From: a virus | Direction: 5' to 3' (one strand) | IMG/VR virus record: IMGVR_UViG_3300031772_000013 | Span: 11,452 to 75,451 of that record | Length of the DNA stretch: 64,000 bases | Part shown: piece after piece, positions 43,735-63,192 of the stretch | How positions within the stretch are numbered: the stretch's first letter is position 1 | Layout: every line of letters begins with the position of its first letter | The notes under the pieces: generated by a model | What the model saw: the letters and a program-made list of their open reading frames with translations, nothing else | Told to the model about the DNA's origin: nothing | Database searches by the model: none | Translations under genes and position numbers: made by a program

Positions 43735-44328
43735 TTACGGGAAGGCCCCGAGCGTGCCGGTCCCCGCCTGCGTAACGCTCGCTCCGGCAATCTCGCTTGC
43801 CTTGAGCCAGCTTCCCGGTACGGACGTGAAGCCATCCGATCCGTTGATCACGATGAGCGGGAGGTTCGCGTTGTTGTAGGGGACCGCGATCGTTGCCTTG
43901 GTCGCCCCTACGGGGATCCGCACAGATGAAAGACTCCGATAGGTCTGGAAACCGGGTGCCATGTCCCCGCCCGCGACGCTATTCACGATCATCAGGAAGT
44001 CGGCGGGGAACACTGGAGCGGCAACGAAACTCACTGCGACCCCAAACGAGAACTCGTGATTCGCGTTCGGAACGTCAGGGTTCTGCACGTTCAAACTCAC
44101 ATCGACCTCAAGGAAGTTCCCTGGAGTGACGACGGGGAGCACGACCCGAAGCGGCACGGTGCCACTCGGGTTACTTGGAATCTCGGTATCGAACGGGCCG
44201 ACCGTCGCCGGCAGCGTGCGCGTTTTCTCAACCTGCGCATATCCGACCTGGATGAGGCCGCCGCCGCCACCAGAGCGCTCAGGGTACGTCTCGGTCGCGT
44301 ATCGTCCCTTGCCGATGACTCTGCTCAT
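43735..44328 (-). CDS. Beta-rich putative virion protein with N-terminal IGKGRYATETYP motif
   Basis: Shared N-terminal motif followed by a poly-Gly linker. Confidence 0.6.
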   Translation of the reverse strand: MSRVIGKGRYATETYPERSGGGGGLIQVGYAQVEKTRTLPATVGPFDTEIPSNPSGTVPLRVVLPVVTPGNFLEVDVSLNVQNPDVPNANHEFSFGVAVSFVAAPVFPADFLMIVNSVAGGDMAPGFQTYRSLSSVRIPVGATKATIAVPYNNANLPLIVINGSDGFTSVPGSWLKASEIAGASVTQAGTGTLGAFP

Positions 44329-44380
44329 GACCGAGAGTCTACCGGGGCCTCGTGGACTGCGCTAGAGAGGGCACGAATGC

Positions 44381-44430
44381 CCGCCCTTCGCCCCAGAAGC
44401 GGCCCGGTAACCCCGGCCGTTTCGCTTTCT
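44381..44430 (+). repeat. Copy 2 of the ~50-bp direct repeat
   Basis: ccgcccttcgccccagaagcggcccggtaaccccggccgtttcgctttct (4 substitutions and 1 indel versus copy 1). Confidence 0.8.
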
Positions 44431-44445
44431 GGTAGGCTACCCTCC

Positions 44446-44967
44446 ATGTCAGACGACGACTATCGGATGGAGCACCAGGCGCCTGACGCGGAGAGCGGCT
44501 CGCCACTCTACGACGTCACGCTAAACGGCACGTACCCTCGAGATTTCTACGATCGCCCGAGCTGGTATCTTTCCGGGCACGATTCCGACTGGGAGGCGAT
44601 CGGGATCATCAGGGCAAGCCTCAACAAACCGGACAGGCGGCTTTGGATCTACCGCGCAGTTCCGCGTGGCGTCCGCAACTTCAACACGGGTGACTGGGTA
44701 TCCATCACCAAGAGCTACGCGCGGGACCACGGGAGGCATCCGACAGACACGGAGCAGGACATGCCCGTACTCGCCGCGCGAGTATACGCGCACGACCTCT
44801 ACACGAGCGGCGATTCGCTTCAGGAGTGGGGCTACGTGGGGCCGACGAAAGAAGGTCTGGTGGTGTTCCGTCCGCGCAAGAAGCCCAGCGAGGAGCAGAT
44901 TGAAGCGAGGAACGTTGCTAGACGAAGCGCCTCTTCGAGAGCGCGTGTCGCGAGGTGGAGAGACTAG
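44446..44967 (+). CDS. Polyvalent-protein-type domain, possibly ART-like
   Basis: YRMEHQAP...IYRAVP...GDWVS...YARDHG...GDSLQEWGY. Confidence 0.55.
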   Translation: MSDDDYRMEHQAPDAESGSPLYDVTLNGTYPRDFYDRPSWYLSGHDSDWEAIGIIRASLNKPDRRLWIYRAVPRGVRNFNTGDWVSITKSYARDHGRHPTDTEQDMPVLAARVYAHDLYTSGDSLQEWGYVGPTKEGLVVFRPRKKPSEEQIEARNVARRSASSRARVARWRD

Positions 44968-46229
44968 TCTCGCCCCACCACAACGACAGCCGGGAACTCC
45001 CTGGCCTTCAGATGCCAGAGCGCAACGAAGCGGTGTGCCCCCTCGATGATGAACGGCCCCTTCTCGTCGATGCCGATGATGAGCGGGCTGATCTCGCCAG
45101 AGCGCCCGATCAGCTCGGCCAGGCGCTCGCTCCGCTCGAAGTCGTCCGCGGCGTAGAACACCGAGCGCGGGTTGCCGAGGTCGGACATCGGCACGACGCG
45201 AACGCCCGGGAGCTCTTCCTGCTCCTCCATGTAGTCGTCGATCGATTCGACGTTCGGAACGTCTTTGCGCACGAGGCGCCCGTCGACGTACTCGCCAGCT
45301 CGTGGGTAGCGCGAGCCTGTCGATTCGATCAGGGATTCGAGCGAGGTCGCCTCGCGCAATCCGAATGGACGGCTCTTCTGCCCCCACAACGCTTGCGCCG
45401 CCTCCGTGTGGGGCTCGTCCGGGAGAAAACTGAGCCCCGATAGTTGCTCCGCCCACACGTAGAGCTCCGTCGCGATCCCCTGCCGACGGTATTCGGGGCG
45501 CACCTCGATGGCGCCCTTCAGCGTTTCGTCCGAAGGACGCTCTCTCCCGTAGAACAGGGAGCCGACGACCTTGTTTCCATCGACCGCGATGATGGTGGCG
45601 TAGCCGCCCTTGTGCGGAAGCCAGTGCATCTCGTATCCGTTGAACGGTTTACTCTTCTGAGCGCGCCTCAACGAGTCCCGCAAGGAGTCGTCCAGGGCCG
45701 CCCACTTGCGGGGGTCATCGCTTGGGCCTGATTCGCGCATCTCACCTGCGCCGCGCTCGACGAGAAACACGGCCGGGATGCTCTTCCAAGCCATTCCGAT
45801 CGCGTAGCTGACCCTGCCACGCCCGTCGCCGATGGCGGTGTCCCCGTTGCGGAGCGTCACGACGACGATGGGAGGCACGGTGCGGGGCGTCCACTGGACA
45901 GCGCGCTTGGCCCAGGCCGCCCCTCGGAACGAGTGTAGTTCAAGGACACGGTCTTGCTCGTCGAGTTCCTTGAGATCCCCGTGCCGCCATTCGGGCCACG
46001 AAGAGAGATCGTCGTAGATGCCGAGTTCCTTGAGCGACACGACGCGGGATTCGATGGCGAAGTCGTCAAGGTTCAGCTCGTGCTCGCTGGAGTCACTCAT
46101 GTGATCCAGAGCGTCCGCCAAGTCTTGCGGATCGGCCTCGATGCTTTGCGCTGGCTCTCGCATCGTCGCGACTGAGCGGCGAGTGAGCTGGCTCCCTTTG
46201 GGTTCGATTCGGTAGTAGAGCTTGGGCAT
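44964..46229 (-). CDS. Polyprotein: ParB/Srx - GNAT acetyltransferase - ParB/Srx
   Basis: PPIVV...GDGRGR; IEVRPEYRRQGIATELY; SPLII...IEGAHR. Linkers MREP, GAGEMRES, LREA. Confidence 0.75.
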   Translation of the reverse strand: MPKLYYRIEPKGSQLTRRSVATMREPAQSIEADPQDLADALDHMSDSSEHELNLDDFAIESRVVSLKELGIYDDLSSWPEWRHGDLKELDEQDRVLELHSFRGAAWAKRAVQWTPRTVPPIVVVTLRNGDTAIGDGRGRVSYAIGMAWKSIPAVFLVERGAGEMRESGPSDDPRKWAALDDSLRDSLRRAQKSKPFNGYEMHWLPHKGGYATIIAVDGNKVVGSLFYGRERPSDETLKGAIEVRPEYRRQGIATELYVWAEQLSGLSFLPDEPHTEAAQALWGQKSRPFGLREATSLESLIESTGSRYPRAGEYVDGRLVRKDVPNVESIDDYMEEQEELPGVRVVPMSDLGNPRSVFYAADDFERSERLAELIGRSGEISPLIIGIDEKGPFIIEGAHRFVALWHLKAREFPAVVVVGRD

Positions 46230-46234
46230 TGTTT

Positions 46235-47044
46235 TCACACGAACGTGAAGACGACCTCTACCGAGTCGTCTTTGGCGCGACGAGCGGCGACGAGACGGTG
46301 GTTGCCGTCCACGATCCACCCGGACCCGTTCTGAAAGACGCCGATCTCGATGGGCGGGAGCCAGACGCCCTCGCCGCGCGCCTGTTGCACCGATCGCAGT
46401 CGCGCCTTGTCGATGGCGGTCGCGCGCAAGCTGTTCAATTCCTCCAGAGGGACGATAGCAGACACGGTCCAGTAGTCGCCGACCAAGTGGTACGACGGCG
46501 GCCCGTACGCCGAACGAGGGGAACCTCGATCTGGATCTGCCGGCAAGGACCGGTACTTGTCGAAGGGGCCTTGTTTACGAGCGGTCGTCTCGCGCATCTC
46601 ACCTGCACCACCTTCGTCACGCCAGCGCGCGTCCTCGACGACCGCGACAAACTCGCTCTCCGGCATGAACATCTCGATCGCGCAGTCGCCACGGAAGTGC
46701 GCGGCGAGAACGCGATGGTTTCCGTCCTGCACGTACGCTTTGCCCGACCGTCGCCGTTGCGAACGCCCTCCGTAGGAGGCGGTCCCGGGCGGAAAGGGCG
46801 TGCCCCGAGCTGCGTACCGCCTCGCGCGCTCGACGCGCTCCTGACTCGATTCTTCTTCGGTCTGGAAGTCCAGGTAGTCGAGCGGCACGGTAGCGCGCAC
46901 CCAGATCGGGCCGCGATCAAACATCCACTCATACATGGCGGGATCGGGGGGCGCCCCGTGACGTCCGCGCGCGTAGAGGCGCTGGTAACTGTCGACGACG
47001 TCGTGGACGTCGAGCCGCTCGATGATGGCGAAGTCGCACGTCAT
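46235..47044 (-). CDS. Tandem ParB/Srx domains joined by GAGEMRET
   Basis: VQDGNHRVLAA and IVDGNHRLVAA. Confidence 0.75.
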   Translation of the reverse strand: MTCDFAIIERLDVHDVVDSYQRLYARGRHGAPPDPAMYEWMFDRGPIWVRATVPLDYLDFQTEEESSQERVERARRYAARGTPFPPGTASYGGRSQRRRSGKAYVQDGNHRVLAAHFRGDCAIEMFMPESEFVAVVEDARWRDEGGAGEMRETTARKQGPFDKYRSLPADPDRGSPRSAYGPPSYHLVGDYWTVSAIVPLEELNSLRATAIDKARLRSVQQARGEGVWLPPIEIGVFQNGSGWIVDGNHRLVAARRAKDDSVEVVFTFV

Positions 47045-48171
47045 TCTCGTGCTCCGAGCGCGTAGAGCCTAGCGAGGAGGCGGTGCGCACGCTCCTCGTC
47101 GAGCGGTTCCTTCTGCCCGAACTCCCGACGGACGTAGAACGCGAGTGTCGAGTCGTCGTCAACCTCGTCTCGCGTGACCTTCCCGTCGAGGATGTCTTCC
47201 ACGTAGGCGAGTAGTCGGTTTGAAACACGCGAAGCGAATCCGGCATCCACGAGCTTCGGCCGACCGTCTTCGTCGAACGCTACCGAGTCTTCCTTGAACT
47301 CTGGCATCGCCCAGCCCTCGGCGAGCATGTACGGCGCGACGTGGTCCCAGAGTTCGCGTATCTTCACGCCCGCGTTCCAGGCTCGGGATCTCCCTCGGAT
47401 ACACTCGCGCACGATGACTCCGTGCTCAGGATCCCATCGCTCGAACGCCGCCACGTACGGGCGCACTTCCGGGATCTGGCTCGCAACGGAGAGCCATTCG
47501 GCCTCGTCGTAAAGCCTCTCTCTCTTTCTTCCTCTGGCGACCTTGTACGCGAAGTGGGCATCGCAGAACACGACACCCTCTCCACCGGCACCGATGTACT
47601 CAAGCGGTGGAGTCGCTCCGGCTTCGATCGCGTACGTGAGAGCTATCTCGATCCATGTGGTCTCTCCGCCGGGTAGATCCCTTGGGTTCGAGAGCGCTTC
47701 GATGGCGCGGTGGCCGCCTCGAAAGTAGCTCGACTGCGGGACGCTCTCCGCCACACGCCCCCCGCTGAGTCGCCTTGGGCGAGCACCAGGCCGAAGGATG
47801 ACCTCGTGCTCGTGCCCGAACGCCCGGCTACCGAGCGCCGTCGCGTCGCCGTTCGGGTACGTTACGGCCCAGTGGAGCAGCACGTCCTCCGGGCGCAGCT
47901 CGAACGTCTCGAAGGCCGTCATGTACGTCGGACGGTCGGTGGATAGGCTCATCCCGCCCACTCCCTGGTCACCAGGCTTCGTGCGGCGGTACGCGGTGAG
48001 CGTCGGCCCAGGGAAGACCTGCTCGACGGCCTGCTCGAGGGCGGCTCGCTGCCGGGTCGGGAGCGCCTCGTAGCGTTCGAGAAGCTCGCGCTTCGCTGCG
48101 GGATCGTTGTAATGGATCCAAAAAGCGAGCGGCTGGTGCAGGACGTCGAGGGCCAGGGAGAGTTGGAGCAT
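47041..48171 (-). CDS. ART-like domain + kinase-like domain joined by VAES
   Basis: AYRR...SLST...EHEVIL; YIGAGGEGVVF..AYKV...LVDAGF. Confidence 0.65.
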   Translation of the reverse strand: MLQLSLALDVLHQPLAFWIHYNDPAAKRELLERYEALPTRQRAALEQAVEQVFPGPTLTAYRRTKPGDQGVGGMSLSTDRPTYMTAFETFELRPEDVLLHWAVTYPNGDATALGSRAFGHEHEVILRPGARPRRLSGGRVAESVPQSSYFRGGHRAIEALSNPRDLPGGETTWIEIALTYAIEAGATPPLEYIGAGGEGVVFCDAHFAYKVARGRKRERLYDEAEWLSVASQIPEVRPYVAAFERWDPEHGVIVRECIRGRSRAWNAGVKIRELWDHVAPYMLAEGWAMPEFKEDSVAFDEDGRPKLVDAGFASRVSNRLLAYVEDILDGKVTRDEVDDDSTLAFYVRREFGQKEPLDEERAHRLLARLYALGARE

Positions 48172-48175
48172 CGCG

Positions 48176-49063
48176 CTACAGTGCCTCGCGCCCCTCTTCG
48201 ACCAGCACCGTTTCGATGTCGCCGCCTCCCGCCGTCGGCGTGTGCCCCGGGTCGAAGATCACGACGCGGTCCCAGTCGTCGTCGTCGCGCGCGATGTGCC
48301 AGCCGATGTTCAGGAAGTGTACGTCGCGTAGGTAGACGCCGTTCGATGCGAGCATCGCGAGCGACTCGCCGAGAGGTGCCCATGCGGGGCCGTCGAACTT
48401 TGTCTCGGTGATGCGAAGCGCCTTGTGCCCCGCGTCTTCGGGTGAGCTGAAGCCCAGCTCGTGCTTGTAGTAGTCTCTGATCTCATGTTGTCGGTGGCTG
48501 CGCGGGTGGCTGCCGAGAACGTGCCATGCGGTTGCTGCTTCCCGGTACGTCATCAAACCACTGATCGCTGTGTCGAAGCTCGACCGCTCCCACGGTTTCT
48601 GGCCGGGTGCGACCCTCACGCTGGTTGGCCGTGTTGGCGTGTGGAGCCCGAGCTTCGCGTTCGTGTACTCCGACGTGGCGATCATCGTCCCGCCACCGTG
48701 GTGTCCGAGTTCCTTCGCGCGGTACTCCTTGAACACCGGCTCGATGCCTTCCCTCACGATCGCCCAGACTTTGCGATTTCGTCCACCCGTCACGAGGTCC
48801 GGCATGATCCGGCGGATGATCCTGATCTCGGGGAAGCCGCCGTCGCCGTACTGCTCCTCGCCTATGAGACCCATGATCTTCGACCAGATAGGCCCCTCGG
48901 TCGGATCGATGCTGAGCTTCACAACCCATGGCGGTTCGCTCTCGAAGACGCAGCCCCAGTGACCGCACCCGAGCATGCGTCCTAGGGACATACCGACGGC
49001 GTGCTCGATAGCGGCGCGCTTCGTGAGAAGCTGCTCGACCCACGCTTTCTTGCGAATAGGCAT
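48176..49063 (-). CDS. Protein-kinase-like fold protein
   Basis: LGCGHWGCVF, WVVKL, RDVH..NI, IFDPG. Confidence 0.75.
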   Translation of the reverse strand: MPIRKKAWVEQLLTKRAAIEHAVGMSLGRMLGCGHWGCVFESEPPWVVKLSIDPTEGPIWSKIMGLIGEEQYGDGGFPEIRIIRRIMPDLVTGGRNRKVWAIVREGIEPVFKEYRAKELGHHGGGTMIATSEYTNAKLGLHTPTRPTSVRVAPGQKPWERSSFDTAISGLMTYREAATAWHVLGSHPRSHRQHEIRDYYKHELGFSSPEDAGHKALRITETKFDGPAWAPLGESLAMLASNGVYLRDVHFLNIGWHIARDDDDWDRVVIFDPGHTPTAGGGDIETVLVEEGREAL

Positions 49064-49106
49064 GCTTCGTCTCAGATGAACGTGATCGGCTCCGCCACGA
49101 CCAGTG

Positions 49107-49325
49107 TCACAGGACAACCTCCACAGGAATCCACGACGAGGTGTCTCGCATCCACTGGAAAAGCTGCACCTTCTGCTCCGTCATGATCCTGGCGTTCTTG
49201 ACGAGCAGAAGCATGGTGCCGAAGTCCGCGAAGGTCGGCCCGATCATGTTCCCGGTACCGGTGACCACTGGGCCAATCGCGCTTCGCACCGAGAACGGTG
49301 GAACAAAAATGTAGTACCAGTTCAT
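49107..49325 (-). CDS. Small hypothetical protein
   Basis: ATG ORF following 49339-50847. Confidence 0.45.
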   Translation of the reverse strand: MNWYYIFVPPFSVRSAIGPVVTGTGNMIGPTFADFGTMLLLVKNARIMTEQKVQLFQWMRDTSSWIPVEVVL

Positions 49326-49338
49326 CGGCTACGTCTTT

Positions 49339-50847
49339 TTAGATGAACGTGATCGGTTGCGCCACGACCGGCACACCCGCCAGCGCGAGCTGCAAGGTCC
49401 GCGTGAAGAGCCCGCTCAGGAAAGGCACCGCTCCCCCGACGGTCACCGGGGGCTGCATCGTCGCTGGCACAAGCGGTGGGCTCGGCGGTGGGGCGGCGTT
49501 GCCGGGATCGACGAACTGCCCGAGCAGCCCAGCGAGCTGAACGTTCGAGGGCGGCACGGCCGGCGACGGGCTCACCCGCACCGCGCCCGTCGGCTTCTTG
49601 ATGACCGTAGTGCCGATGTTGCCCTTGGTTCCGACGTTGTTGTTCGTGCCGGTGTTGACGAGCCCGGTGTTGTTGGTGTCGATCCCCGTGTACTCCGTCG
49701 TGAGCGTCACGATTTTCGGTCCCAGCGCCGCGACGGTGTAGAGCGTGCCCATCTGCTCGGCGAACTCGATGACGTTGCCTGGCGCGAGCGCGGCCGTTTG
49801 ATCGGCCGTCGTAGGCACGTCCTTCGATCCGGTCGTGACGATGAAGTCGCCAGCCAGATGCGGGGTACTGGTCCCTTGCGCGGCGAGCGCGAAGTACGAG
49901 GGAGGCAAGTACGCGAGCGCCTTCGAGATGAGGAGCTGAGCCTCGTCAGTGAGCGCGAAGAACGTGTTGTCACCTTGGCCTGCGCCGACGCCGGTACCCG
50001 GGGTCGCATTTGGTCGGATCGATGGGAGTGGGCCTGAAAGTTCGACGAGTGTGATCTCTCCGATGCTGTTGCCGAACCCGCCAACGCTCGCGATGACGAT
50101 GTTCGTGATCTCGGCGATATTTATCGTGCCTCCCGCGAGAGCGACAGCGGCCGGCCGCCTGCCAGTAAGCGAAACCGTCGTAGATCCCGCAGCACCGAGC
50201 GTGTCCTTGTACGTCACGGTCACGGTCCTCGCGCCCGATCCCGCCGGGATCGGTGGCACGGTCGCGACGCCAGCGGTGTCGAGATCCGAGCTGGAGTAGA
50301 TGGCAGCGATCGTGACCGGTGCTGCGATCTCATGGAACGCGCCCGTGTTCTGCGTCACACCTGTGTACGGCGTCGTGAGGTTGATCGATGTGGGTGTCGT
50401 CCCTGCTGCGATCGTGTAGAAGACGCCCTGTTGCGAGAGAAACTGGATGATGCTCCCGGTGACGAGCGACGGGAGTTGTGTCATCGACGTCAGGACGCCG
50501 GTTGAACCGTTCGTGGGGAAGAACGATCCCGGAAGCGTCACCGCCTCTCGTAACGGGTACGGGAGCACGGGGGGCGTCGCGGTGCGAGGGTGACAGGGAA
50601 AGGGAGGCGGCGCCTTGCGCGCGTTCGCGGCGTCCATGTTGAGCGTCAGGGTGCGCGTCGCGGTGGTCGGCCCGGACACGGCGGAAGCGTCACTCGCGAC
50701 GGTGAGGCCGTAGTTCTGCCCGAGCACGGGGTCGGTGGTCGGATCTCCAAAGAGTGGAACCGCAGCGAGCGCAGCAGCCGCCGCCACAGGCCCGAGAATG
50801 GTGTTCGTGACGTCGACGGTCCACTTGAGCACGATTTGAGTCGCCAT
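49339..50847 (-). CDS. Thr/Gly/Pro/Ala-rich beta protein, putative virion structural protein
   Basis: Composition, plus an internally duplicated unit (G..I.F..Q.G..YT.A....I.LTT.YTG). Confidence 0.55.
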   Translation of the reverse strand: MATQIVLKWTVDVTNTILGPVAAAAALAAVPLFGDPTTDPVLGQNYGLTVASDASAVSGPTTATRTLTLNMDAANARKAPPPFPCHPRTATPPVLPYPLREAVTLPGSFFPTNGSTGVLTSMTQLPSLVTGSIIQFLSQQGVFYTIAAGTTPTSINLTTPYTGVTQNTGAFHEIAAPVTIAAIYSSSDLDTAGVATVPPIPAGSGARTVTVTYKDTLGAAGSTTVSLTGRRPAAVALAGGTINIAEITNIVIASVGGFGNSIGEITLVELSGPLPSIRPNATPGTGVGAGQGDNTFFALTDEAQLLISKALAYLPPSYFALAAQGTSTPHLAGDFIVTTGSKDVPTTADQTAALAPGNVIEFAEQMGTLYTVAALGPKIVTLTTEYTGIDTNNTGLVNTGTNNNVGTKGNIGTTVIKKPTGAVRVSPSPAVPPSNVQLAGLLGQFVDPGNAAPPPSPPLVPATMQPPVTVGGAVPFLSGLFTRTLQLALAGVPVVAQPITFI

Positions 50848-51113
50848 GGGGGTGAGGATACCTTGTCGAGAGGCCCGTGAGAGAGCCATGATCGCTCAGG
50901 GCGGACTTCGGGCCACGTTCGAGGGTAAACGGCCGCTTTGGGGCTCTGTGAGCGTTTCTCGGGCGACAGCCGCAAATAGCCAGGTCAAATACCGCGCTGG
51001 AGCCGCGTTGGAGCCACGCGAAAGCCAGTCGGGGAACCCGGGGGGTCACACATGCACCGATCGTGGGCGCAGAGGCGCGGAAGGGCAATCGCACCCCCTG
51101 GACACCCTGGGAC

Positions 51114-51143
51114 CATGCGTGATAAGCCTGGTTCTCACGCATG
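51114..51143. promoter_or_regulatory. lox/dif-like tyrosine recombinase core site
   Basis: CATGCGTGATAA-GCCTGG-TTCTCACGCATG: 12-bp inverted arms (11/12 match) with a 6-bp spacer. Confidence 0.65.
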
Positions 51144-52295
51144 CCCCCCTCGACGCCTGATAACCAGATAACCAAAGCCGACGGCTCCGGTGCAATCACC
51201 GAAGCGCAAAGCGAGCTGGTAGCGCTCGACGCACGGGCGGAAGAGGAAGTCGACAAGGCAGTCCCGGCCAACACCAGGCGGGCCTACGAGTTCGAATTGG
51301 CCTGTTTCGTCTCCTGGTGCGCCCGCCACGGCGTTCGTGCGGTGCCGGCCGAGCCGCGGGTCCTTCGTGCCTACCTGCAAGAACTAGCCGAGCGTGGACG
51401 AAGCAAAACAGATGTCCCGAAGGGCAGACCGAAGGGGCCGCTCGGGTACAGCGCTCTGATGCGAGCCCTCGCGGCCATCTGTCGCAGTCATCAGCAGGCC
51501 GGCCATCTAAGCCCGTGGAAAGACCCTGTTATCGAAGGCGTGCGCGACAAGTTCGCCAGAGCCCTCGGGAAGGCACCGAAGAAGCAGAAGCATGCGATCG
51601 AAGCTGTCGGGGAGGGTCTGCTGTTCCGTGTTTGCGACTTGATAAGCGACGATGTTCGAGGGGTTAGGGATCGTGCGATGCTTCTCGTCGGCTGGTCCGG
51701 AGGCGGTCGCCGTCGCAGCGAGATCACCGCCGCACGCGCCGAGGACTTCACCGAGATCGCGGAAGGGATCCGGTGGTCGATTCCGCGCAGCAAAGCGGAC
51801 CAGATCGGCAAGGGTCTCGTGGTGTTGATGAAGCCGTCGGACGACGAGCGGTACTGCCCTGTTCAAGCGTTGCGGCGCTGGCTCGAAGTCTCGAAGATCG
51901 AAAGCGGTCCAGTGTTCCGGGGGGTCGAGGTAGGTACCAACAAGATCATGGACGTCGGGCTCGCGCCTGAAGGAGTGTCGCGTCGCGTGCAGTGCTACGT
52001 GAAGCTGCTCGGCCTGGACCCGGCGGATTTTGGGGGCCACTCGCTACGCAGCGGGTTCGTCACGACCGCGCACAGGTTGGGGGAGAACGCGGCGGACATC
52101 GCGGCGTCCACCGGGCATCACGGGGTGAATCAGGTCAACGAGTACATCCGGCGCGCGGGACTCGAAGACGCAGCCGGGCCAGGGCTGCTCAACCGAGCGA
52201 TTGCTCAGCGTGGCTCACAAACCGAACCGTCGAAACCGAAAGAGGTTGACGAGAAAGGAGCCAATGAAGCGATGAGAAAGGAAAAGGAACGGTGA
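51141..52295 (+). CDS. Cre-like tyrosine recombinase
   Basis: NTRRAY, RDRAMLL...RRSE, RSKADQ, HSLRSG, TGH, EY. Confidence 0.92.
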   Translation: MPPSTPDNQITKADGSGAITEAQSELVALDARAEEEVDKAVPANTRRAYEFELACFVSWCARHGVRAVPAEPRVLRAYLQELAERGRSKTDVPKGRPKGPLGYSALMRALAAICRSHQQAGHLSPWKDPVIEGVRDKFARALGKAPKKQKHAIEAVGEGLLFRVCDLISDDVRGVRDRAMLLVGWSGGGRRRSEITAARAEDFTEIAEGIRWSIPRSKADQIGKGLVVLMKPSDDERYCPVQALRRWLEVSKIESGPVFRGVEVGTNKIMDVGLAPEGVSRRVQCYVKLLGLDPADFGGHSLRSGFVTTAHRLGENAADIAASTGHHGVNQVNEYIRRAGLEDAAGPGLLNRAIAQRGSQTEPSKPKEVDEKGANEAMRKEKER

Positions 52296-52355
52296 GAACG
52301 ACGGAATGGAACATGATGCAAAGCAGGCAAGCTCTGCGGAAAGGCGAATGATCAC

Positions 52356-52574
52356 ATGAAGAAGAAGTTGTTCAAGTTGCTTCGGGACGTCCCCGGCGGG
52401 CACGATGACGTGTTGGGGGGCAAGGTCTCACTCGACAACGTCTACGTCCGCACGTACGGGCGTACGGTTCGCGGGCGCGCGCCTGACGAGCTGGATGTGG
52501 ACGAATCCTGCGTACGCGAGTACGCCCTGAGCGGTCAGAAGCGAACGCAGTACGTTCTGCTTCGAGTGCAGTAA
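52356..52574 (+). CDS. Small hypothetical protein
   Basis: ATG ORF followed by a hairpin. Confidence 0.5.
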   Translation: MKKKLFKLLRDVPGGHDDVLGGKVSLDNVYVRTYGRTVRGRAPDELDVDESCVREYALSGQKRTQYVLLRVQ

Positions 52575-52581
52575 AGTGGAG

Positions 52582-52616
52582 GCGAGCCCCGGGGCTTTCG
52601 CGGCACCGGGGCTCGC
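52582..52616 (+). terminator. Hairpin, possible terminator or processing site
   Basis: GCGAGCCCCGG / CCGGGGCTCGC 11-bp perfect stem, no U-tract. Confidence 0.4.
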
Positions 52617-56013: not shown

Positions 56014-56040
56014 GAACGAACAGGGAACGGGGCTTCGTGG

Positions 56041-56229
56041 TCAGATCCGGTAGTCGCCGCTGAACCAGTCTTGAAGCACGCCGCCCTGTTGCACCGGCGG
56101 CACTGCCGGGGCCGGAGCCGGAGAGCGCCCCCAGTTTGATCGGATCCCTGCGCCAATCATCACGAGGCCCGAGGCGACGATGGCGAATGGGAACCAGCCC
56201 GGTAGATCATTTTGTTTTTTGTGGGTCAT
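56041..56229 (-). CDS. Small single-pass membrane protein
   Basis: WFPFAIVASGLVMIGAGI. Confidence 0.6.
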   Translation of the reverse strand: MTHKKQNDLPGWFPFAIVASGLVMIGAGIRSNWGRSPAPAPAVPPVQQGGVLQDWFSGDYRI

Positions 56230-56726
56230 GTCACGTACCTGTTACCTTCAGCCCAGTCCTGAAGCCCACACGTTGTAGCCTCGGCGGCCGAGAGCCGACG
56301 TCGGGCTCCAGGATAGAACCAGCCGGCAAGCGTCCACGGCTCGACGCGCACTATGTAGAGGTGTCGCCCGGCGATGCGTCGCAGCTCGGTCATGGCCGCC
56401 TGAAAGTCGGACACGTACTCCAGCACGCAGGCCACGAAGACGACAACAGAGTCGTCGGCGAACGGGAGCGGTTTCGTGATGTCGGCTCGAATGAAGTTCG
56501 GGCAGGTGCTCTCGCCGAGGTCTACTGTGACGTCACCGCAACCGTAACCAGCCGTCACACCGCCGTCGGGCGCTCCGACGACTACCAACGGTTTACCGAG
56601 CTTGAGCGCCTCCGCCTTGGCACACGCGAACTGTTGCCCGCGTAGATGCCGCCGCCTCGCCCACCAGGCGGTCTCCCACGTAGCTAGCGCACCGGCGCCG
56701 GCCAGGGTGAGCGGGAGCCATCTCAT
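56226..56726 (-). CDS. Membrane-anchored SAM-methyltransferase-like protein
   Basis: N-terminal hydrophobic segment. LVVVG...VDL...ADITKPLPFADDS...VLEY. Confidence 0.55.
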   Translation of the reverse strand: MRWLPLTLAGAGALATWETAWWARRRHLRGQQFACAKAEALKLGKPLVVVGAPDGGVTAGYGCGDVTVDLGESTCPNFIRADITKPLPFADDSVVVFVACVLEYVSDFQAAMTELRRIAGRHLYIVRVEPWTLAGWFYPGARRRLSAAEATTCGLQDWAEGNRYVT

Positions 56727-57127
56727 GCGCGTGCTACCATTTCGAAGAAGTACGGGTTCGTGAGCCCGTTGCGGGTCCGCCTGATCCGTTGCGCCGCTTG
56801 AGAGCCAGGTAGCCCGAGATCGACCAGGGCTAGCCCCGCAATCACTCCGGAACGGTTGCGCCCCTGCCAGCAAGTCACCAGCACCCGCTGCCCGGCGCGC
56901 ACTCGTCGCGCGACCTCGTGTGCGCTTCGTCGGATGAGCGCGCGTTCGCCCTGAGTCGGCGGGGGGCCGTCATCAAGCGGCGCGCGTAGCACGTCGTGTC
57001 CTGGCAGATCCGGCTGGTACTCCATCGCTGCGAGCACGATGGCGTCGAACGGGAGCCGCACACCGCGCGGCGGAGCGCTGCCCTGGGCGAGTTGACCGCT
57101 GGCCAGGAGGTAAGAATAACCCGCCAT
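56723..57127 (-). CDS. Dual-specificity (CX5R) phosphatase
   Basis: PLDD acid loop. VLVTCWQGRNRSG. Confidence 0.85.
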   Translation of the reverse strand: MAGYSYLLASGQLAQGSAPPRGVRLPFDAIVLAAMEYQPDLPGHDVLRAPLDDGPPPTQGERALIRRSAHEVARRVRAGQRVLVTCWQGRNRSGVIAGLALVDLGLPGSQAAQRIRRTRNGLTNPYFFEMVARA

Positions 57128-57309
57128 CAGGCCGTGACCCCCGCGGCATCGATCCACGCACTTCCGTTCCACCAGATCGGCTCGTCGAGCGACGTATCCC
57201 AGTAGAACTGAGTGACGGTCGGGTTCGTGGGCCGCGCTGCGGTAGGCCCGAAGATCGGGAACGGGGTCTCAGTGTCCGCTGGAATGTCCGTGACAGGTGT
57301 GTAGCTCAT
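57127..57309 (-). CDS. Small fibre/decoration-type structural peptide
   Basis: G.TAARP...YWDTSL..PIWWNGSAW.DAAG. Confidence 0.55.
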   Translation of the reverse strand: MSYTPVTDIPADTETPFPIFGPTAARPTNPTVTQFYWDTSLDEPIWWNGSAWIDAAGVTA

Positions 57310-58085
57310 ACGAGTGCTCCGTTGAACCGGACGCTCGACAGCCGGAAGGCCCGGATGATCTGGTTGATGGAGTCGCCTGTGACGAGCATGAGAGCCGGCG
57401 TCTTGTTCGGCGACTTCGGAAGTCCGCCGTCGAGCGAGTTGGCCTCAGCGAGCTTCGCATTCGGGTACGCCGCGAGGATGGTCGAGAGCTTGTAGCTGCT
57501 TGCTGGCCATCCGGCCGTGAACCCGTATGTCGGTGGCGCTGCCCCTTGCACGTCGGGGGCCACGTACGGGGGGCCGGCGGCAGGCACCGCCGCGCTGAGC
57601 CCATTGACGATCAGAAGGTTGTTCGATGCGCCAAGCCAGGTAGTTGTGCGACTGCCGTCTAGGTTCAGGACGGTGTTGCCATTGTTCAGTACGGCGGCTG
57701 AAGCCGGATCGATCACGCCGATCTTGAAGGAGGTGCCGTTGCCGTACACATCGATGATGAGGTTCGCGTACACAGGCAAGCCGCTGGTCGCAGGATTCAG
57801 ATCAAGCCACGTCCATTCGATGCTCGACAGCAAACTGAGCGGCAGTCCGTTGCCTACCCGGAAGCCCAGGATGCACTTGTTGCCAGTGCCGCCTCCATTG
57901 TAACCACCAGCCGTGTTACCGCCGCTCTGGGCGTGCAGCACAGGAAACATTGTGTACGGCGCTTCGACGTGCGCCGAGTTGACGGAGCAATCAACGCGGT
58001 TCTGAAAAGCGAAGTCGCTCGCGGCCCCCGTCGAACGCGAAGGGTACGTCTCTCGTGCGTAGCGACCTAGACCGATGATGTGCAT
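57306..58085 (-). CDS. Beta-rich putative virion protein with N-terminal IGLGRYARETYP motif
   Basis: Shared motif. Gly/Asn/Ser-rich. Confidence 0.6.
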   Translation of the reverse strand: MHIIGLGRYARETYPSRSTGAASDFAFQNRVDCSVNSAHVEAPYTMFPVLHAQSGGNTAGGYNGGGTGNKCILGFRVGNGLPLSLLSSIEWTWLDLNPATSGLPVYANLIIDVYGNGTSFKIGVIDPASAAVLNNGNTVLNLDGSRTTTWLGASNNLLIVNGLSAAVPAAGPPYVAPDVQGAAPPTYGFTAGWPASSYKLSTILAAYPNAKLAEANSLDGGLPKSPNKTPALMLVTGDSINQIIRAFRLSSVRFNGALV

Positions 58086-58094
58086 GTTCTGCTT

Positions 58095-60227
58095 TCACGC
58101 CGGGTACGGCACATAGGCAGAAGGCGGACCGCTGAGCGCGCCGCCCGCCGCGATGGATGGACGCGCCGTCAGTACGTCGTTCTCGATCGCGAAGAGGTAG
58201 TCGGTGCCGTCGGGGCCGCGCACGGCTCGGGGGCGACCCCTAGATCCGTGGACGGCAGACCTCCCCGCCCGGTCCATCTCTCGGGACATGTCGGCGATGG
58301 GAGGCCCCCACGTTTTCGAATCGACATCGAAGCAGGCGCCAAGTGCGCCAAGCGCGCCGCCCTCGCGCCGCCACCGATTCGCGTCCGAGTCCCAGTTCCA
58401 TCGCGCCACGGTGCCTGTGTAGTTCCGGCCTTGCGTCGACTCAAGAAAGCGCATCTCCTCGACGGTCGCATCGTGGTTGGAGAGCCACACGGGGCCACGT
58501 TGCACGATTGGCGCCCCGTTGGCGTACACGGTGAACCATCGCCAGGCGCTCGAACCCCAGAGCGATCCGACCCCGAGCGCGCTGTTCGGATAGGGCGGGT
58601 ACTCGGGGATCGGCGCTGCCGGTTCAGTAGACGGAGCGGCTCGCGGCCCTGTGGCCGCGGCAACGGCCGGCCGCCTTGTCGGGGGCTCCCTCAACGCGGG
58701 AGGCTTCGCCGGTGCGGCAGAAGCAATGGGTTTTGGCGCAACGGCCGGTTGCCTTGTCGGTGGCTCCCTCAGCGCGACCCGCGGTCCGGTGGGAGCGCTG
58801 GGCGTAGTGGCCGGCGGGCTTGGTGCGGGGGGCTTCGCCGCCACGGCCTTGGTTTGCGCTGCTGCCACGGCCGCCGCCGCCGCAGAGGCCGCCGCAGAGG
58901 CTACCGATGGAGCGCTCACGACGTTCTTGAGCCACGGGACGTGCTGCGTCTGCGCTTTCAGCGCCACATCGAAGCCCTGACGCACATCGGGAGGGAGCTG
59001 GCTTCGCGCCGCGATCAGCGCCTTCTCGTTGATCCCCGCGTGGCTCAGGAGCCCCGCAGCGAGCTGGAAACCCTCCGTCGCTTTGCCGGCCGCCACGCCC
59101 TTGAGCGCCGCCGCGAGTCCCGGCGTTGCCGTGATCGCGTTCTTTCCCGCGGCTACGATCGATTGCAACTGTGCAGGCGCAAGGCTCGCCAGCCCGTTAG
59201 CGAGAGCTGTTTGAATCTTTTCGCCCGTGGCGACAGCGAGCCCGATATCGAACGCTTTCTGCGCTGCCGGGGGGAGCTGCGATCGAGCGGCCTCGAGTGC
59301 GATCTTGCTGACATTTTCACCTTGTGCAACCTTGATCGCTGCATCGAATCCCGCGGCAACCAGAGGCCCGCCAGGCAGAGCATTGCGGATCGCGGCCTTT
59401 GCCGCTTCCGTGATGCTCTGCCCCTCAGCGAGCGCGAGACCGGCACTCATCGCCATAGCCACGCCTGTCCCAATCCCGGGCACGACGGATATGACCATTT
59501 GCGCGTACGGTGCGGCCTCTTTGACGATCTTGACCTGATCCTTGAGGTGGTTGACGAGCGCGTGATCCAGTCGAGCTCCGGAAGCGATCGATGTCGCGAG
59601 CTTGGCGGGGGCCGATGCGGCATCGTTCACGATGCGAGTCACGTCGCCGACAAAGGGTATCTTCGCCGTAGCTGCGGCGACGATTTTGGTAGGGGCCGTG
59701 ACGACGGTCGTGGCGACATCAACAGCTTTTTCGAGGATGTTCTTCTTAGGAGCCAGGACCGGATTGATTTTCCAACCACCAGTCCGTGCGTCCAAGACCG
59801 GCGTGCCCCGCGCGTCGAGCCAGACCAGATTCCCGTCATCCTGAAAGACGATCCGCGCAGCGTCACTCCTTGGACGTATGTCCATGACCACTCCGCCTTT
59901 AGGATCCGTGAGCACTAGGCTACCGCCGGGTGTCATTGTCGCCCGAGTCGCTGGCGTGTTGTGAGCGTGCGACCACCAGAGTGCGGTGTATTGTCCTCTG
60001 CCGTTCGGGCCATAGAGGACGAGATTCCCCGCGCTTTGCATGATGACCAAGCCGCCGTTCTTCGTTACGAGCGCGTCTCCTCGATCGAGGTATTGCCCGG
60101 GGCGAAGTTCGCTGCCCTTCGCCTTGTAACGAGGTAGCGAGACCAGTCCTCCAACACCGACCGTCGGGACGGCTCCGAGCCCGAACGGATCAACGAGGCG
60201 CCCAGCGATGCGAATCGGAGAGAGCAT
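58095..60227 (-). CDS. Bulb-type (B-)lectin domain + Ala-rich helical region + Pro-rich linker + C-terminal domains
   Basis: L.PGQ.L, MQSAGNLVLY, LWWS, FQDDGNLV. Confidence 0.75.
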   Translation of the reverse strand: MLSPIRIAGRLVDPFGLGAVPTVGVGGLVSLPRYKAKGSELRPGQYLDRGDALVTKNGGLVIMQSAGNLVLYGPNGRGQYTALWWSHAHNTPATRATMTPGGSLVLTDPKGGVVMDIRPRSDAARIVFQDDGNLVWLDARGTPVLDARTGGWKINPVLAPKKNILEKAVDVATTVVTAPTKIVAAATAKIPFVGDVTRIVNDAASAPAKLATSIASGARLDHALVNHLKDQVKIVKEAAPYAQMVISVVPGIGTGVAMAMSAGLALAEGQSITEAAKAAIRNALPGGPLVAAGFDAAIKVAQGENVSKIALEAARSQLPPAAQKAFDIGLAVATGEKIQTALANGLASLAPAQLQSIVAAGKNAITATPGLAAALKGVAAGKATEGFQLAAGLLSHAGINEKALIAARSQLPPDVRQGFDVALKAQTQHVPWLKNVVSAPSVASAAASAAAAAVAAAQTKAVAAKPPAPSPPATTPSAPTGPRVALREPPTRQPAVAPKPIASAAPAKPPALREPPTRRPAVAAATGPRAAPSTEPAAPIPEYPPYPNSALGVGSLWGSSAWRWFTVYANGAPIVQRGPVWLSNHDATVEEMRFLESTQGRNYTGTVARWNWDSDANRWRREGGALGALGACFDVDSKTWGPPIADMSREMDRAGRSAVHGSRGRPRAVRGPDGTDYLFAIENDVLTARPSIAAGGALSGPPSAYVPYPA

Positions 60228-60293
60228 GATGTCAATATCGTATCATTGTTTCACGGAAGCAGGAATCGGGCAGTTCGCTGCGATTTCGCTGGA

Positions 60294-60473
60294 TTAGCTC
60301 CCGTCGAGCGTGTCGCTGTCCTCGTCGTCGCTGAGATCGTGGATCTCGATGACGGGGGCACCGCAACGAGCGCACTTGCCGTACACCACGCGAATGTGTT
60401 GCTGCGGGCCTTCCCGGACGTCGAGTTCGTCGTACGAGTGCCCGAGGAGGAAGCAGAGCAAGCGGGCGAGCAT
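60294..60473 (-). CDS. Small Zn-binding protein (LC.LLGH...C.RCG)
   Basis: DUF1660-like pattern. Confidence 0.5.
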   Translation of the reverse strand: MLARLLCFLLGHSYDELDVREGPQQHIRVVYGKCARCGAPVIEIHDLSDDEDSDTLDGS

Positions 60474-60511
60474 GGGGCGTTCTAGCGTAGCTCTCGCGTC
60501 CCCGTCTGACT

Positions 60512-61081
60512 TCAGCCGTAGATTTTGTCGAAAGCTGTCGCGATGTAAGCGCTGCCGCTCCCGATGACATTTCCGAATGTCGCCTTGAGGAGCAGGATGT
60601 CTCCCGCGACCCATGTGACGTTTCCGAAATCCACCGGATCGCCGGAAGCGATAACGAGCGCTTGAGGAAAAGTGATCGTGCCGACGCTGGCAAACTGGTC
60701 CCAGGGCACCGTCACTGAGTTCCCTGTTGGGATGCCGTTGACGGTCCACTGAAGCTGAACGTCGTCGCTCCCATCTGTTGACAGATCGAACGCACGTCCG
60801 ATGCGTGCTTGCCCAATCCGTCCTGGTAACACCTCGGGGCCGAAGAGTAGCGGCCCGAGAGGGCTGATTGGGTCACTGACTGAGATGAACGTAGATCCGA
60901 ATAGAGCCGCGAGGAGAAACTCCCCGAGCACGTAATAGTCCCCCGGGGCAATCACGGGTGAAGACACGTCGTTCTGAATCCCAATGGAGAAGTGTTGATC
61001 CAGGTTGGCCCCGACGCCACCGCCGCTCCGAGTCGGGTACGTTTCGGTTGCGTAGCGCCCTTTGCCAATGATTTTGCTCAT
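60512..61081 (-). CDS. Beta-rich putative virion protein with N-terminal IGKGRYATETYP motif
   Basis: Shared motif followed by a Gly linker. Confidence 0.6.
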   Translation of the reverse strand: MSKIIGKGRYATETYPTRSGGGVGANLDQHFSIGIQNDVSSPVIAPGDYYVLGEFLLAALFGSTFISVSDPISPLGPLLFGPEVLPGRIGQARIGRAFDLSTDGSDDVQLQWTVNGIPTGNSVTVPWDQFASVGTITFPQALVIASGDPVDFGNVTWVAGDILLLKATFGNVIGSGSAYIATAFDKIYG

Positions 61082-61095
61082 GGGATGCGAGTTCC

Positions 61096-61569
61096 TTACC
61101 GCTCATCAAGAAGAGTCCCGCCCACTCTCGTGAGCAGAGTGACTCCGTGGTGCAGTCCCCAAGGTAGCACGGGTCCGCCCGGTTCGTGGAAGTGCTGCTC
61201 GACCCAGGTCGCGTACGTCCTTCCGTCGCTAGCGACAAACGGCAAGAGCTTCCCGTACGGCATCGACGTGAAACCTGGCGCGCTCACGAGCGCGCTCGCG
61301 GCGCCTCTGAGTTCCGGCAGCGCGGCTACCTCGGCGCTTGTCGCGCGGCGCCAGCTGGTAGGCACAGCGAGCGCGACGCGCGTGGGCTCACCGAAGGTCT
61401 GAGGAGGCGACGGAAGCGGCGCCGCCTCTGCTTTTTTCCGTGTTAGGAAAAGGAAGGATGCGAGCCCTCCTCCGATCGCGAGCCACAGGAGCGGCTTTTT
61501 CAGCACTGTCTGGCGCACGTTCCTGTCGCGGGCCAACTCGAGCACCTTCATGTGCATCACGGCCTCCAT
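61096..61569 (-). CDS. Single-pass membrane protein
   Basis: LLWLAIGGGLASFLFLTRKK. Confidence 0.6.
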   Translation of the reverse strand: MEAVMHMKVLELARDRNVRQTVLKKPLLWLAIGGGLASFLFLTRKKAEAAPLPSPPQTFGEPTRVALAVPTSWRRATSAEVAALPELRGAASALVSAPGFTSMPYGKLLPFVASDGRTYATWVEQHFHEPGGPVLPWGLHHGVTLLTRVGGTLLDER

Positions 61570-62315
61570 GGGTGTCTGACCGGTACGGGCCTGAAGCCCA
61601 GCGGCGGGAGGATAGGCTCCGGTCTCGGCCTTGGTTGCGGCTCAGGCTCCGGGGCGCGAGCGCTCATCGCCTTGTAGACGCCGTAGCCGGCCGCAGCGAC
61701 GAGGGCAACGACCCCGACCGCAGCCGCCGCAACGCCAGATCGATTCGGTGGTCCGAGTGGCGGCGTGACGGCCTCGTGGCAGATCGCTGGGAAGCTGCCG
61801 ATCGTTCCGTTCGCTCGGTTGAGCACACGCTGCATGTACGATCGCGTGTCGCCGACCGTTATGACGCCGTTCTTGTCGAGATCGAGCTGCGGGTTGCTGG
61901 CGTACGCGGCTGATCCTTGAGTGAAGACAGGCGTGTCGTCGGACGCCCCGATGAGGTTCGGCTTTCCGAGCACTGCCAAGAAGTAGTCTTCGATTCGTGC
62001 CGGTATTTGTCCGCGGAGGCTCGTTTCGAAGAACCGCTCGACGAGAGGGAGTTGCTCTTCGGCGCTCATGGCGCGTATTTGCGCCGTCGTCGTACCTAGG
62101 GAGGCCGCCGTTGATTCGATGAATTGAATGAGCCCGCTAGCAGAGCCGCCAGGGTTCTTTGCGGCAGGGTTGAACGCGCTCTCCTCGCTGATGACGAGCG
62201 CGATGCCGTTTGGATCCCAGCCGTGTCTCCAAGACATCTCGACGAGCTTGCACAGAAACGCGGTCGTGACGGTGCTGATACCAGGCAGAGCCAGAAGCGC
62301 GGTTTCGATCTGCAT
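61557..62315 (-). CDS. Lytic transglycosylase/lysozyme-like protein with C-terminal TM anchor
   Basis: EESAFNPAAKN...SASGLIQF...EQL...N..LDLDKNGVIT. TM segment VAAAAVGVVALVAAAGYGVY. Confidence 0.82.
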   Translation of the reverse strand: MQIETALLALPGISTVTTAFLCKLVEMSWRHGWDPNGIALVISEESAFNPAAKNPGGSASGLIQFIESTAASLGTTTAQIRAMSAEEQLPLVERFFETSLRGQIPARIEDYFLAVLGKPNLIGASDDTPVFTQGSAAYASNPQLDLDKNGVITVGDTRSYMQRVLNRANGTIGSFPAICHEAVTPPLGPPNRSGVAAAAVGVVALVAAAGYGVYKAMSARAPEPEPQPRPRPEPILPPLGFRPVPVRHPWRP

Positions 62316-62857
62316 CAGATCACCGCCCGCGCAATCTCTTGCGCCCAAATCCGATAACCGTCTGGGGTCGTCGGATGCAGGCTGTTGGCCATGGGTAGCG
62401 TCGGCGCCGGTACCGTGCTCACACCGAGAGATGCGATGACAGCGCGCATCGCTGGCGAGTTCACGGCCGCAGGCGGCTCGATCCACACGACGCGAGCGCC
62501 GAGGCCGTGGAGCCCCCGTACGAGGATCTGGTAGTTCGCCGGGTTCGGTGCGGTGCCGTCGTTGACGCCCAGGCTCACGAGCACGATGTCGGGCTTGAAC
62601 GACGTGAGCCAGGCGCCGCACTCACCGCATTTTTGTGAGCCGTGCGCCCACTGCGACGTGTTCGTCCCCTGGTGTCCCTCGAACTTGAAATCGGGCAAGA
62701 GCTTCGCGAGCTCCGGCCCGAGCCCCTCGGCGTACGAGTCCCCGATGAGAGCCACGCGCGGCGCCTTAGACTCGGAGCGCTTGGCGCGCAGGATGGCTAC
62801 GGTTACGCCAAGGACGAGACCGATGCCACCGAGTGCTTTCCAGGGAACGCCGGCCAT
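62315..62857 (-). CDS. SGNH/GDSL hydrolase with N-terminal TM anchor
   Basis: IGDS, G, LGVND, LHP..GY..WA. Confidence 0.85.
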   Translation of the reverse strand: MAGVPWKALGGIGLVLGVTVAILRAKRSESKAPRVALIGDSYAEGLGPELAKLLPDFKFEGHQGTNTSQWAHGSQKCGECGAWLTSFKPDIVLVSLGVNDGTAPNPANYQILVRGLHGLGARVVWIEPPAAVNSPAMRAVIASLGVSTVPAPTLPMANSLHPTTPDGYRIWAQEIARAVI

Positions 62858-62865
62858 TGATCTCC

Positions 62866-63192
62866 CTACGTGCGGAACACGGCCCAGGAGAAGGTTATAG
62901 ACCCGCCCGGCCACCCCTCTTCGCCCACGTCCGCTATGTTGAACCGGATTTTGTCGTCGAAGACGTTGATGTGGGGGAGAATGAGGATCGAGATGGGCTT
63001 GACGTCGGATCCGAAGATGATGGCGCACGAGTCGCCGCTGCGGGCACCGGGAACGGAGAGGGTGATGCTGACGCCCGGGAACCCCGCCGGAAACTTCGCG
63101 ATGTCGATCTTCGTCTTCCCGGCGATGTTGGACGCTCGTGCCTCTGGGTACGTTTCGCCTGAGCGCCGGCCTCGTCCTGTACCGTACGCCAT
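62866..63192 (-). CDS. Small beta-rich putative virion protein with divergent G.GR...ETYP motif
   Basis: MAYGTGRGRRSGETYPEAR. Confidence 0.55.
   Translation of the reverse strand: MAYGTGRGRRSGETYPEARASNIAGKTKIDIAKFPAGFPGVSITLSVPGARSGDSCAIIFGSDVKPISILILPHINVFDDKIRFNIADVGEEGWPGGSITFSWAVFRT

Follow-up and report, generated by a model that had tools for sequence, protein, structure and literature searches.

Four proteins encoded on a 64,000-nucleotide stretch of viral DNA (IMG/VR record IMGVR_UViG_3300031772_000013; bases 11452-75451 of a 75,451-bp contig, hereafter the window) begin with nearly the same peptide of about 16 residues, and the four protein bodies that follow it share no detectable sequence similarity. 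It is well supported that this peptide, which we call the tag, is a portable N-terminal module of fibre-type proteins. On balance, we favour the reading that it is a plug-in docking tag, by which interchangeable fibres would be mounted on the virion. The four open reading frames (ORFs) lie where the first-pass annotation, made from the letters alone, had placed them; translation confirms all four, on the minus strand:

43735..44328, minus strand: tagged protein P0001, 197 amino acids (aa), by translation; starts MSRVIGKGRYATETYPERSGGGGG
44281..44328, minus strand: tag-coding part of P0001 (residues 1-16), by translation, DNA comparison and tag profile
57306..58085, minus strand: tagged protein P0002, 259 aa, by translation; starts MHIIGLGRYARETYPSRSTG
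58041..58085, minus strand: tag-coding part of P0002 (residues 1-15), by translation, DNA comparison and tag profile
60512..61081, minus strand: tagged protein P0003, 189 aa, by translation; starts MSKIIGKGRYATETYPTRSGGG
61034..61081, minus strand: tag-coding part of P0003 (residues 1-16), by translation, DNA comparison and tag profile
62866..63192, minus strand: divergent tagged protein, 108 aa, by translation; starts MAYGTGRGRRSGETYPEAR, with the tag MAYGTGRGRRSGETYP
63145..63192, minus strand: tag-coding part of the divergent 108-aa member, by translation and tag profile

In the window, the tag follows the pattern M-S-x-I-I-G-[KR]-G-R-Y-A-x-E-T-Y-P from residue 1 of each ORF, P0002 lacking the usual residue 2. 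Six-frame translation of the whole contig contains the string ETYP five times against 0.28 expected occurrences, and four of the five are residues 13-16 of an ORF. A tag profile made only from 143 database N-termini was run on the 1,143 six-frame ORFs of the contig. P0001 (43.0 bits, E 7.5e-13), P0003 (42.5 bits, E 1.8e-12) and P0002 (32.7 bits, E 1.2e-9) scored unambiguously; the 108-aa protein starting at 63192 was marginal (13.2 bits, E 1.6e-3 within the contig), and the best ORF without a tag reached 3.3 bits (E 1.8). The scores thus define three canonical members and one divergent member. Chance is excluded as the origin of the four shared tags, and the shared N-terminal motif that had been noticed by eye is real. 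At the DNA level, the four copies differ at synonymous sites and the sequences upstream of them are unrelated, indicating that selection acts on the peptide; a DNA-level repeat or a regulatory element was rejected on the same grounds. As to the divergent member, its gene has a GC content at third codon positions (GC3) of 0.83, its stop is followed after 9 nt by the start of another conserved gene, and in a complete relative (G001, see below) the corresponding slot is filled by a tagged gene.

Behind the tag, a flexible linker had been proposed for each protein. Such linkers are evident in three of the four (SGGGGG, SGGGVG and STGAAS) and less clear in the fourth. The bodies, in turn, are as dissimilar as had been claimed: pairwise blastp found no similarity among them (best E 1.4). 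Full-length paralogy, which had been named as one finding that would undo the anchor hypothesis, is thereby rejected at the level of sequence; the comparison at the level of folds covered P0001 only. Searches of Pfam, PHROGs and NCBIfam left all four without a match, and none contains the G-x-y repeats of Pfam Collagen (PF01391). The tag itself is covered by no named family in these three collections; the first-pass annotation had not recognized it as one either.

The tag is widespread among environmental sequences. A degenerate DNA pattern for G-R-Y-A-x-E-T-Y-P matched 27 IMG/VR loci, with up to six copies per contig, and the matches lie 6-9 codons past the start codon in nearly every locus. 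A local profile recovered 52 distinct tagged N-termini in the loci that were compared. Exhaustive searching of 1.84 billion representative proteins with a 32-column tag profile (threshold E <= 1e-3) returned 257 representative clusters at 50% identity. A motif search of this genome and of the databases, as had been suggested, yields the four contig ORFs and these 257 clusters. The initial description of a family of four is correct for the contig and understates the whole, as relatives in which more than one tagged gene was found carry 2-7 per genome. The 150 best database matches all begin at residue 1 or 2 of proteins of 27-1082 aa. Their consensus reads M-S-H-I-I-G-R-G-R-Y-A-R-E-T-Y-P, after which comes a stretch rich in Gly, Ala, Pro and Ser; the variation of the tag can be written M-S-[HRY]-[IV]-I-G-[RK]-G-R-Y-A-[RT]-E-T-Y-P. 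Conservation among these 150 is highest at R9 and P16 (145 each), Y15 (144), G6 and G8 (143 each), followed by E13 (134) and T14 (123), and residue 2 is small in 145. The first 25 aa gave chance matches only in a tblastn search of 50,697 deposited phage genomes (INPHARED; E 4), the window region had no megablast match among phages, and a literature search for the tag string returned nothing relevant. Judging from these sequences, the tag appears to be common to one undescribed group of large environmental viruses, in which it would head hundreds of fibre-, knob- and collagen-like proteins.

What the tag is attached to is highly diverse. The 67 distinct tagged proteins in related loci fall into 42 body clusters. 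Among the 150 best database members, Pfam recognized only Collagen (11 members) and Ice_binding (2 members), and 22 contain at least six G-x-y triplets; several tagged relatives continue into the triple-helix repeats of Pfam Collagen (PF01391). P0001, for which eight homologues were recovered, consists of the tag, a Gly5 linker and a TNF/C1q-type knob. Its AlphaFold2 model, computed with 9 homologues, has a mean predicted local distance difference test score (pLDDT) of 78.5 and a predicted template modelling score of 0.76. Residues 27-197 form a beta sandwich, and residues 1-24, including the tag, are disordered (pLDDT < 50). Foldseek placed the Pgp3 C-terminal domain first (E 5.7e-5, probability 1.00), followed by EDA, Eiger, BclA, C1q and ExsFA. 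VIA-align gave a Z score of 11.9 to a TNF-like lectin, 11.6-11.1 to BclA-type domains and values down to 10 for EDA and C1q; nearly all of the 44 chains at Z >= 8 belong to the TNF/C1q superfamily. In a viral library, the matches were collagen-like proteins of giant viruses and, among phages, the tips of tail-fibre and minor tail proteins. The body of P0001 is thus predicted, from its model, to be a fibre-tip knob of TNF/C1q type, and the beta-rich character that had been attributed to all four bodies is borne out for P0001, the protein that was modelled.

The P0002 body belongs to a widespread orphan family (66 homologues), in which the tag is only one of several beginnings: 8 of 74 inspected sequences carry it, the remainder having other N-terminal peptides or being fragments. 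One body is therefore used with different anchors. Homologues of the P0002 body (P0166-P0230) are headed by at least three further short peptides, R-x-S-P-S-G-P-x-V, M-G-P-L-G-S-T-Q-x-V-Q-G and M-S-R-Y-G-T-I-L-G-G; such alternative peptides may be the anchors of other virus lineages. P0003 has a full-length homologue with the same tag (69% identity, L018:2556-3122).

Tags also resemble each other more within a genome (72.8% identity) than between genomes (67.0%; permutation p about 5e-4). Unrelated bodies of one genome share the same substitutions, G-K-G-R-Y-A-T in the contig and G001, and S-H-I-V-G and Tyr3 in two other genomes. Two neighbouring paralogues at L053:16955-19975 carry the same clade-specific variant, M-G-x-[IL]-x-G-x-K-N-R-S-P-x-T-Y-E. 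In a distant clade of 41% GC (L064:13932-20067), whose C10 protein (see below) is 45% identical, four or five consecutive fibre-like genes start with a different N-terminal module, G-A-I-Q-F-S ... N-F-H-[FWY]-D. Such co-variation fits a co-adaptation of the tags of a genome to one receiving site.

The contig is syntenic, in reverse orientation, with the complete genome of relative G001 (111,461 bp, 127-bp terminal repeats; loci L029-L034), and P0001-P0003 recur unchanged on another recorded contig, of 110,873 bp. A conserved protein named C10 and its neighbour block are present in G001 and absent from the 75-kb contig, which is only about 70% of a genome. Since part of the module is thus missing, the four tagged genes are a lower bound. 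The record of the contig (G000) is nevertheless rated 100% complete; given the absence of the whole C10 block and the occurrence of the same proteins on the 110,873-bp contig, this completeness estimate appears unreliable for the lineage. In G001, the module opens with C10 (441 aa, GC3 0.92), proteins of 201, ~297 and 237 aa and a peptidoglycan-binding membrane protein, and continues with a 167-aa protein with a weak tag, a 67-aa Cys-rich protein and two tagged proteins up to the genome end. Beyond that end come a small membrane protein, an ice-binding-like protein, two more tagged proteins, a membrane-anchored SGNH hydrolase, an SLT transglycosylase and further small membrane proteins. In the window, the 56-64 kb block corresponds to the last part of this module. 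C10 is the most conserved of the structural-looking proteins: among the 32 viral contigs that were found, 30 have it at 64-87% identity; tagged genes of the relatives lie 4-10 kb downstream of it, mixed with membrane proteins, SLT transglycosylase, SGNH hydrolase and peptidoglycan-binding protein. The conserved proteins of the module match no PHROG or Pfam family. On short contigs (L066, L067), C10 relatives were binned with metagenome-assembled genomes of Candidatus Binatia and Polyangiaceae, a weak hint at the host.

The genes surrounding the tagged ORFs in the window are the following:

62315..62857, minus strand: putative SGNH/GDSL-type hydrolase, conserved and membrane-anchored, adjoining tagged genes in many relatives
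61557..62315, minus strand: lytic transglycosylase (SLT domain) with a C-terminal hydrophobic segment; Pfam SLT 9.4e-8, PHROG 4928 and 196; likely start at 62315
61096..61569, minus strand: small protein, hydrophobic over a stretch near its N-terminus and conserved in L022, L023 and L002
58095..60227, minus strand: untagged protein of 710 aa, partly conserved, 57% identical over 254 aa to L023; PHROG matches weak
56723..57172, minus strand: conserved 149-aa protein, directly before tagged genes in relatives; 62-69% identical in L007, L023, L005 and L009
43353..43409, plus strand: left copy of a direct repeat of ~57 nt (repeat search; 88-90% identity, spacing 1022 nt)
44375..44430, plus strand: right copy of the same repeat (repeat search)
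42976-43317, plus strand: virus-encoded transfer-messenger RNA (tmRNA) with the tag peptide ANDNSIALPVQKAA (ARAGORN)

The putative hydrolase is 58-82% identical in L022, L010, L023, L002, L012, L014, L003 and L005, and its G001 orthologue matches Pfam Lipase_GDSL_2 / SGNH below Pfam's cut-off. The hydrophobic N-terminal stretches of the hydrolase and of the protein at 61096..61569 are visible by eye and were not flagged by the hydropathy scan. The P0001 gene is set apart, about 13 kb from the other three tagged genes. The ~57-nt repeats, each copy of which holds a hairpin and then a T run, flank a 1-kb minus-strand cassette of two genes, P0001 and a 104-aa ORF (43408-43722), beside the tmRNA gene. 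This cassette looks like an inserted gene module, and its position indicates that a tagged gene need not sit in the operon. Elsewhere on the contig (bases 7830-15942, in the window up to 4491; L001), multi-module proteins contain repeated G-R-R-x-V-S-E-A-[PR]-R linkers; these may be protease sites, and at the level of sequence the A-R-E-T of the tag is similar to them.

Which kind of particle would receive the tag? Among five CheckV-complete relatives (85-125 kb), no match was found to Terminase_6N, TerL_ATPase, Phage_portal or the HK97-type Phage_capsid, whereas control genomes matched, although sequence profiles can miss very divergent versions. The structural region of G001 has no ORF longer than ~640 aa and therefore no gene of tape-measure size, and no tail family was found in the proteins scanned. 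We lean towards a tail-less, membrane-containing particle. C10 is a weak candidate for its capsid protein, on account of jelly-roll-like signals in structural comparisons: its ESM Atlas neighbours are all jelly-roll capsid proteins, yet below the trust threshold, Foldseek returned nothing significant, and the PDB gave no match by sequence or by profile. A HerA/FtsK-type ATPase at G001 14700-15680 (minus strand, locus L029; Pfam DUF87; PHROG 2666, 'terminase large subunit') was considered as a universal packaging enzyme and rejected, as it occurs in only three of the five complete relatives and is absent from the contig and from the syntenic slot (window 52.3-54.0 kb); it is not used as evidence here. 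A more far-reaching proposal, which we put forward tentatively and regard as rather doubtful, is that the lineage consists of large (85-125 kb) tail-less, membrane-containing jelly-roll viruses of bacteria, whose capsid would display a varying set of trimeric fibres, four to seven or more and unrelated to each other, all mounted through one 16-residue tag.

The docking reading can be formulated as follows. Each tagged protein would be a surface fibre, spike or knob of the particle, made of the tag, a short Gly/Pro/Ser/Ala-rich tether and a body. The body would usually be trimeric and would recognize or degrade structures of the host surface; collagen triple helices, TNF/C1q-type knobs, beta-helices and orphan beta-rich domains could all take this place. 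The tag, disordered on its own, would bind by induced fit to one conserved receiving site, so that any body acquiring it would thereby be mounted; the virus could in this way carry several such fibres (four here, as many as seven in a relative) and exchange them. As the receiving site, we consider a capsid or vertex protein more likely than a tail baseplate, the particle probably being tail-less and membrane-containing. The first-pass annotation had proposed a plug-in anchor of this kind, and much of that proposal holds: the module is portable, its bodies are diverse and of fibre type, and relatives carry it in a structural-looking module. Docking at a single virion site, by contrast, is something that we infer, as we do binding itself, incorporation into the virion and trimer stoichiometry.

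Several observations weigh against this reading. Of the window members, the fourth is weak, and no homologue of its 108-aa body turned up in the sequences searched. Loci L049, L052, L054 and L062 bear C10 and have no tagged ORF within the 10 kb examined. All tagged sequences that were looked up, ten of ten database proteins, are metagenomic and unnamed or labelled 'hypothetical protein'. The AlphaFold2 model of C10 is poor (pLDDT 59.8), and its jelly-roll matches (VIA-align Z 5-6) lie within background, as do its beta-sandwich matches. The concerted variation of tags within genomes could also be explained by gene conversion or recent duplication. Finally, the A-[RT]-E|T of the tag resembles the G-R-R-x-V-S-E|A-[PR]-R linkers of the same genome, so the tag may be cleaved.

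This last point leads to the most serious rival, which we nonetheless consider unlikely: that the tag is a targeting propeptide. Its residues 1-13 would direct the protein to the particle under assembly or to the scaffold, and a protease of the virus or the host would then cut after Glu13 (A-x-E|T), comparably to the T4 capsid targeting sequence or the cleaved N-terminus of BclA. Such a role would be compatible with docking. A-[RT]-E-T matches a small-x-Glu|small pattern, the multi-module proteins of this genome repeat a similar linker, E13 is kept in 134 of 150 members, and internal proteins of phage T4 carry at their N-terminus a targeting propeptide of 10 residues, which the prohead protease of the phage cuts off (PMC9026906). 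However, T14, Y15 and P16, past the putative cut, are as conserved as the residues before it (123, 144 and 145 of 150), and E13 is replaced in genuine members, for instance in A-R-A-T-Y-P, T-S-V-Y-P and Y-G-T-Y-P. Moreover, collagen rods of 500-1000 aa and lectin-type knobs are unlike cargo packed inside capsids. Neither the contig nor four complete relatives matched the S77/S78 prohead proteases (PF03420, PF04586), a search in which the PF03420 control was also silent everywhere. Improbable to a similar degree is that the virus is a tailed phage, though a very divergent one, and that the tag docks fibres to its baseplate or to an adaptor of its tail. Klebsiella phages offer a documented case of a short conserved N-terminal docking peptide (PMC6872550, PMC13352976), tail fibres commonly bear TNF/C1q knobs and collagen rods, and the SLT protein matches PHROG 196, 'baseplate hub'. 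Against this stand the complete relatives, in which terminase, portal and HK97 capsid families went unmatched while the controls matched, the lack of a tape-measure-sized gene in the G001 structural region, and a conserved module that is rich in small membrane proteins and whose proteins match no PHROG or Pfam family.

The tag might instead be a signal for a chaperone, a modifying enzyme such as a glycosyltransferase, or an export route, without holding the protein on the virion. Glycosylation is frequent among collagen-like surface proteins, one relative (L017) has a glycosyltransferase gene close to its tagged genes, and position 2 is almost always a small residue, which suggests a need for a defined mature N-terminus. 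Yet the loci compared show no conserved enzyme or chaperone that accompanies the tag, inspection of the sequence reveals neither a hydrophobic core nor a twin-arginine pattern of the kind typical of export signals, and the genome-specific co-variation of tags fits a structural partner better; we therefore hold this explanation to be very unlikely. We give hardly any credence to the idea that the shared start is a recombination handle or a remnant of duplication devoid of function at the protein level. It would account for the greater likeness of tags within genomes and for the direct repeats that flank one tagged gene, but not for synonymous differences where amino acids are kept, nor for near-invariant residues across 257 clusters at 50% identity.

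If docking is indeed the function of the tag, its interest lies in its economy. A constant attachment end combined with a variable recognition end is how viruses change hosts. Here the constant end would be only ~16 residues long and serve many unrelated bodies at once, which is unusually minimal; should the tag alone suffice for mounting, it would be a natural plug-in handle for protein display on a particle. The tag may also serve as a simple marker of host-recognition genes, listing the fibre repertoire of uncultured viruses whose structural genes match nothing known. A lineage of ~100-kb genomes without the hallmark genes of tailed phages would itself be of interest, and, if the tail-less interpretation is true, surface display through a minimal transferable anchor would operate in a virus far larger than any known tail-less phage.

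Short N-terminal attachment or targeting sequences are known from several other systems. In Klebsiella podophages KP32, K11 and KP34, secondary receptor-binding proteins carry a conserved N-terminal docking peptide (PMC6872550, PMC13352976). The likeness lies in a short peptide that plugs a variable receptor-binding protein into a receiving domain, as a plug-and-play handle. These are tailed phages, however, in which a T4gp10-like branching domain on the first tailspike receives the peptide; the sequence of their tag is unrelated to ours, and no tail genes were found here. In T4, about 10 N-terminal residues of unrelated internal proteins form a capsid targeting sequence that suffices for incorporation and can carry foreign proteins (PMC9026906). 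It similarly is a short N-terminal sequence common to unrelated proteins and ends in Glu at a protease site, but it targets the prohead interior and is removed, whereas the bodies described here look external and conservation extends past the Glu.

The N-terminal tail of the adenovirus fibre, FNPVYPY, sits in the cleft between penton-base monomers (PMC8156859). There too, a trimeric fibre with a variable distal knob is held on the capsid by a short, conserved, extended peptide whose core is an aromatic residue and Pro, and the remainder of the fibre is free to vary. The FNPVYPY motif is absent from our tag, only the aromatic-Pro pair being common, and adenoviruses have one or two fibre genes, versus 4-7 unrelated bodies per genome on one tag here, where docking to the capsid is only presumed. 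The spike protein P5 of tectiviruses PRD1 and PR772 is seated in the penton by its N-terminal base, from which a collagen-like stalk leads to a trimeric knob (PMC6750898). The parallels with this system comprise a membrane-containing bacterial virus, N-terminal attachment, a collagen-like triple helix and a knob, as well as a gene context of membrane proteins and transglycosylase. The differences are that P5 is attached by a folded jelly-roll domain of the penton of ~120 residues rather than by a 16-residue peptide, and that tectivirus genomes measure ~15 kb versus 85-125 kb here, with no sequence similarity found. Outside viruses, an N-terminal motif targets BclA and BclB of Bacillus to the exosporium (PMC4674009, citing Thompson and Stewart 2008 and Tan and Turnbough 2010). 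In this case as well, several collagen-like proteins with C1q/TNF-type heads share a short N-terminal motif that brings them to one surface layer, and the likeness extends to the modelled P0001 knob, which aligns with the BclA C-terminal domain at Z 11.1-11.6; the surface concerned is that of a cellular spore, not of a virion, and the motif has another sequence. No sequence relation emerged, and it is by mechanism that the adenovirus fibre tail, tectivirus P5 and the BclA/BclB motif would be the nearest analogues of the tag.

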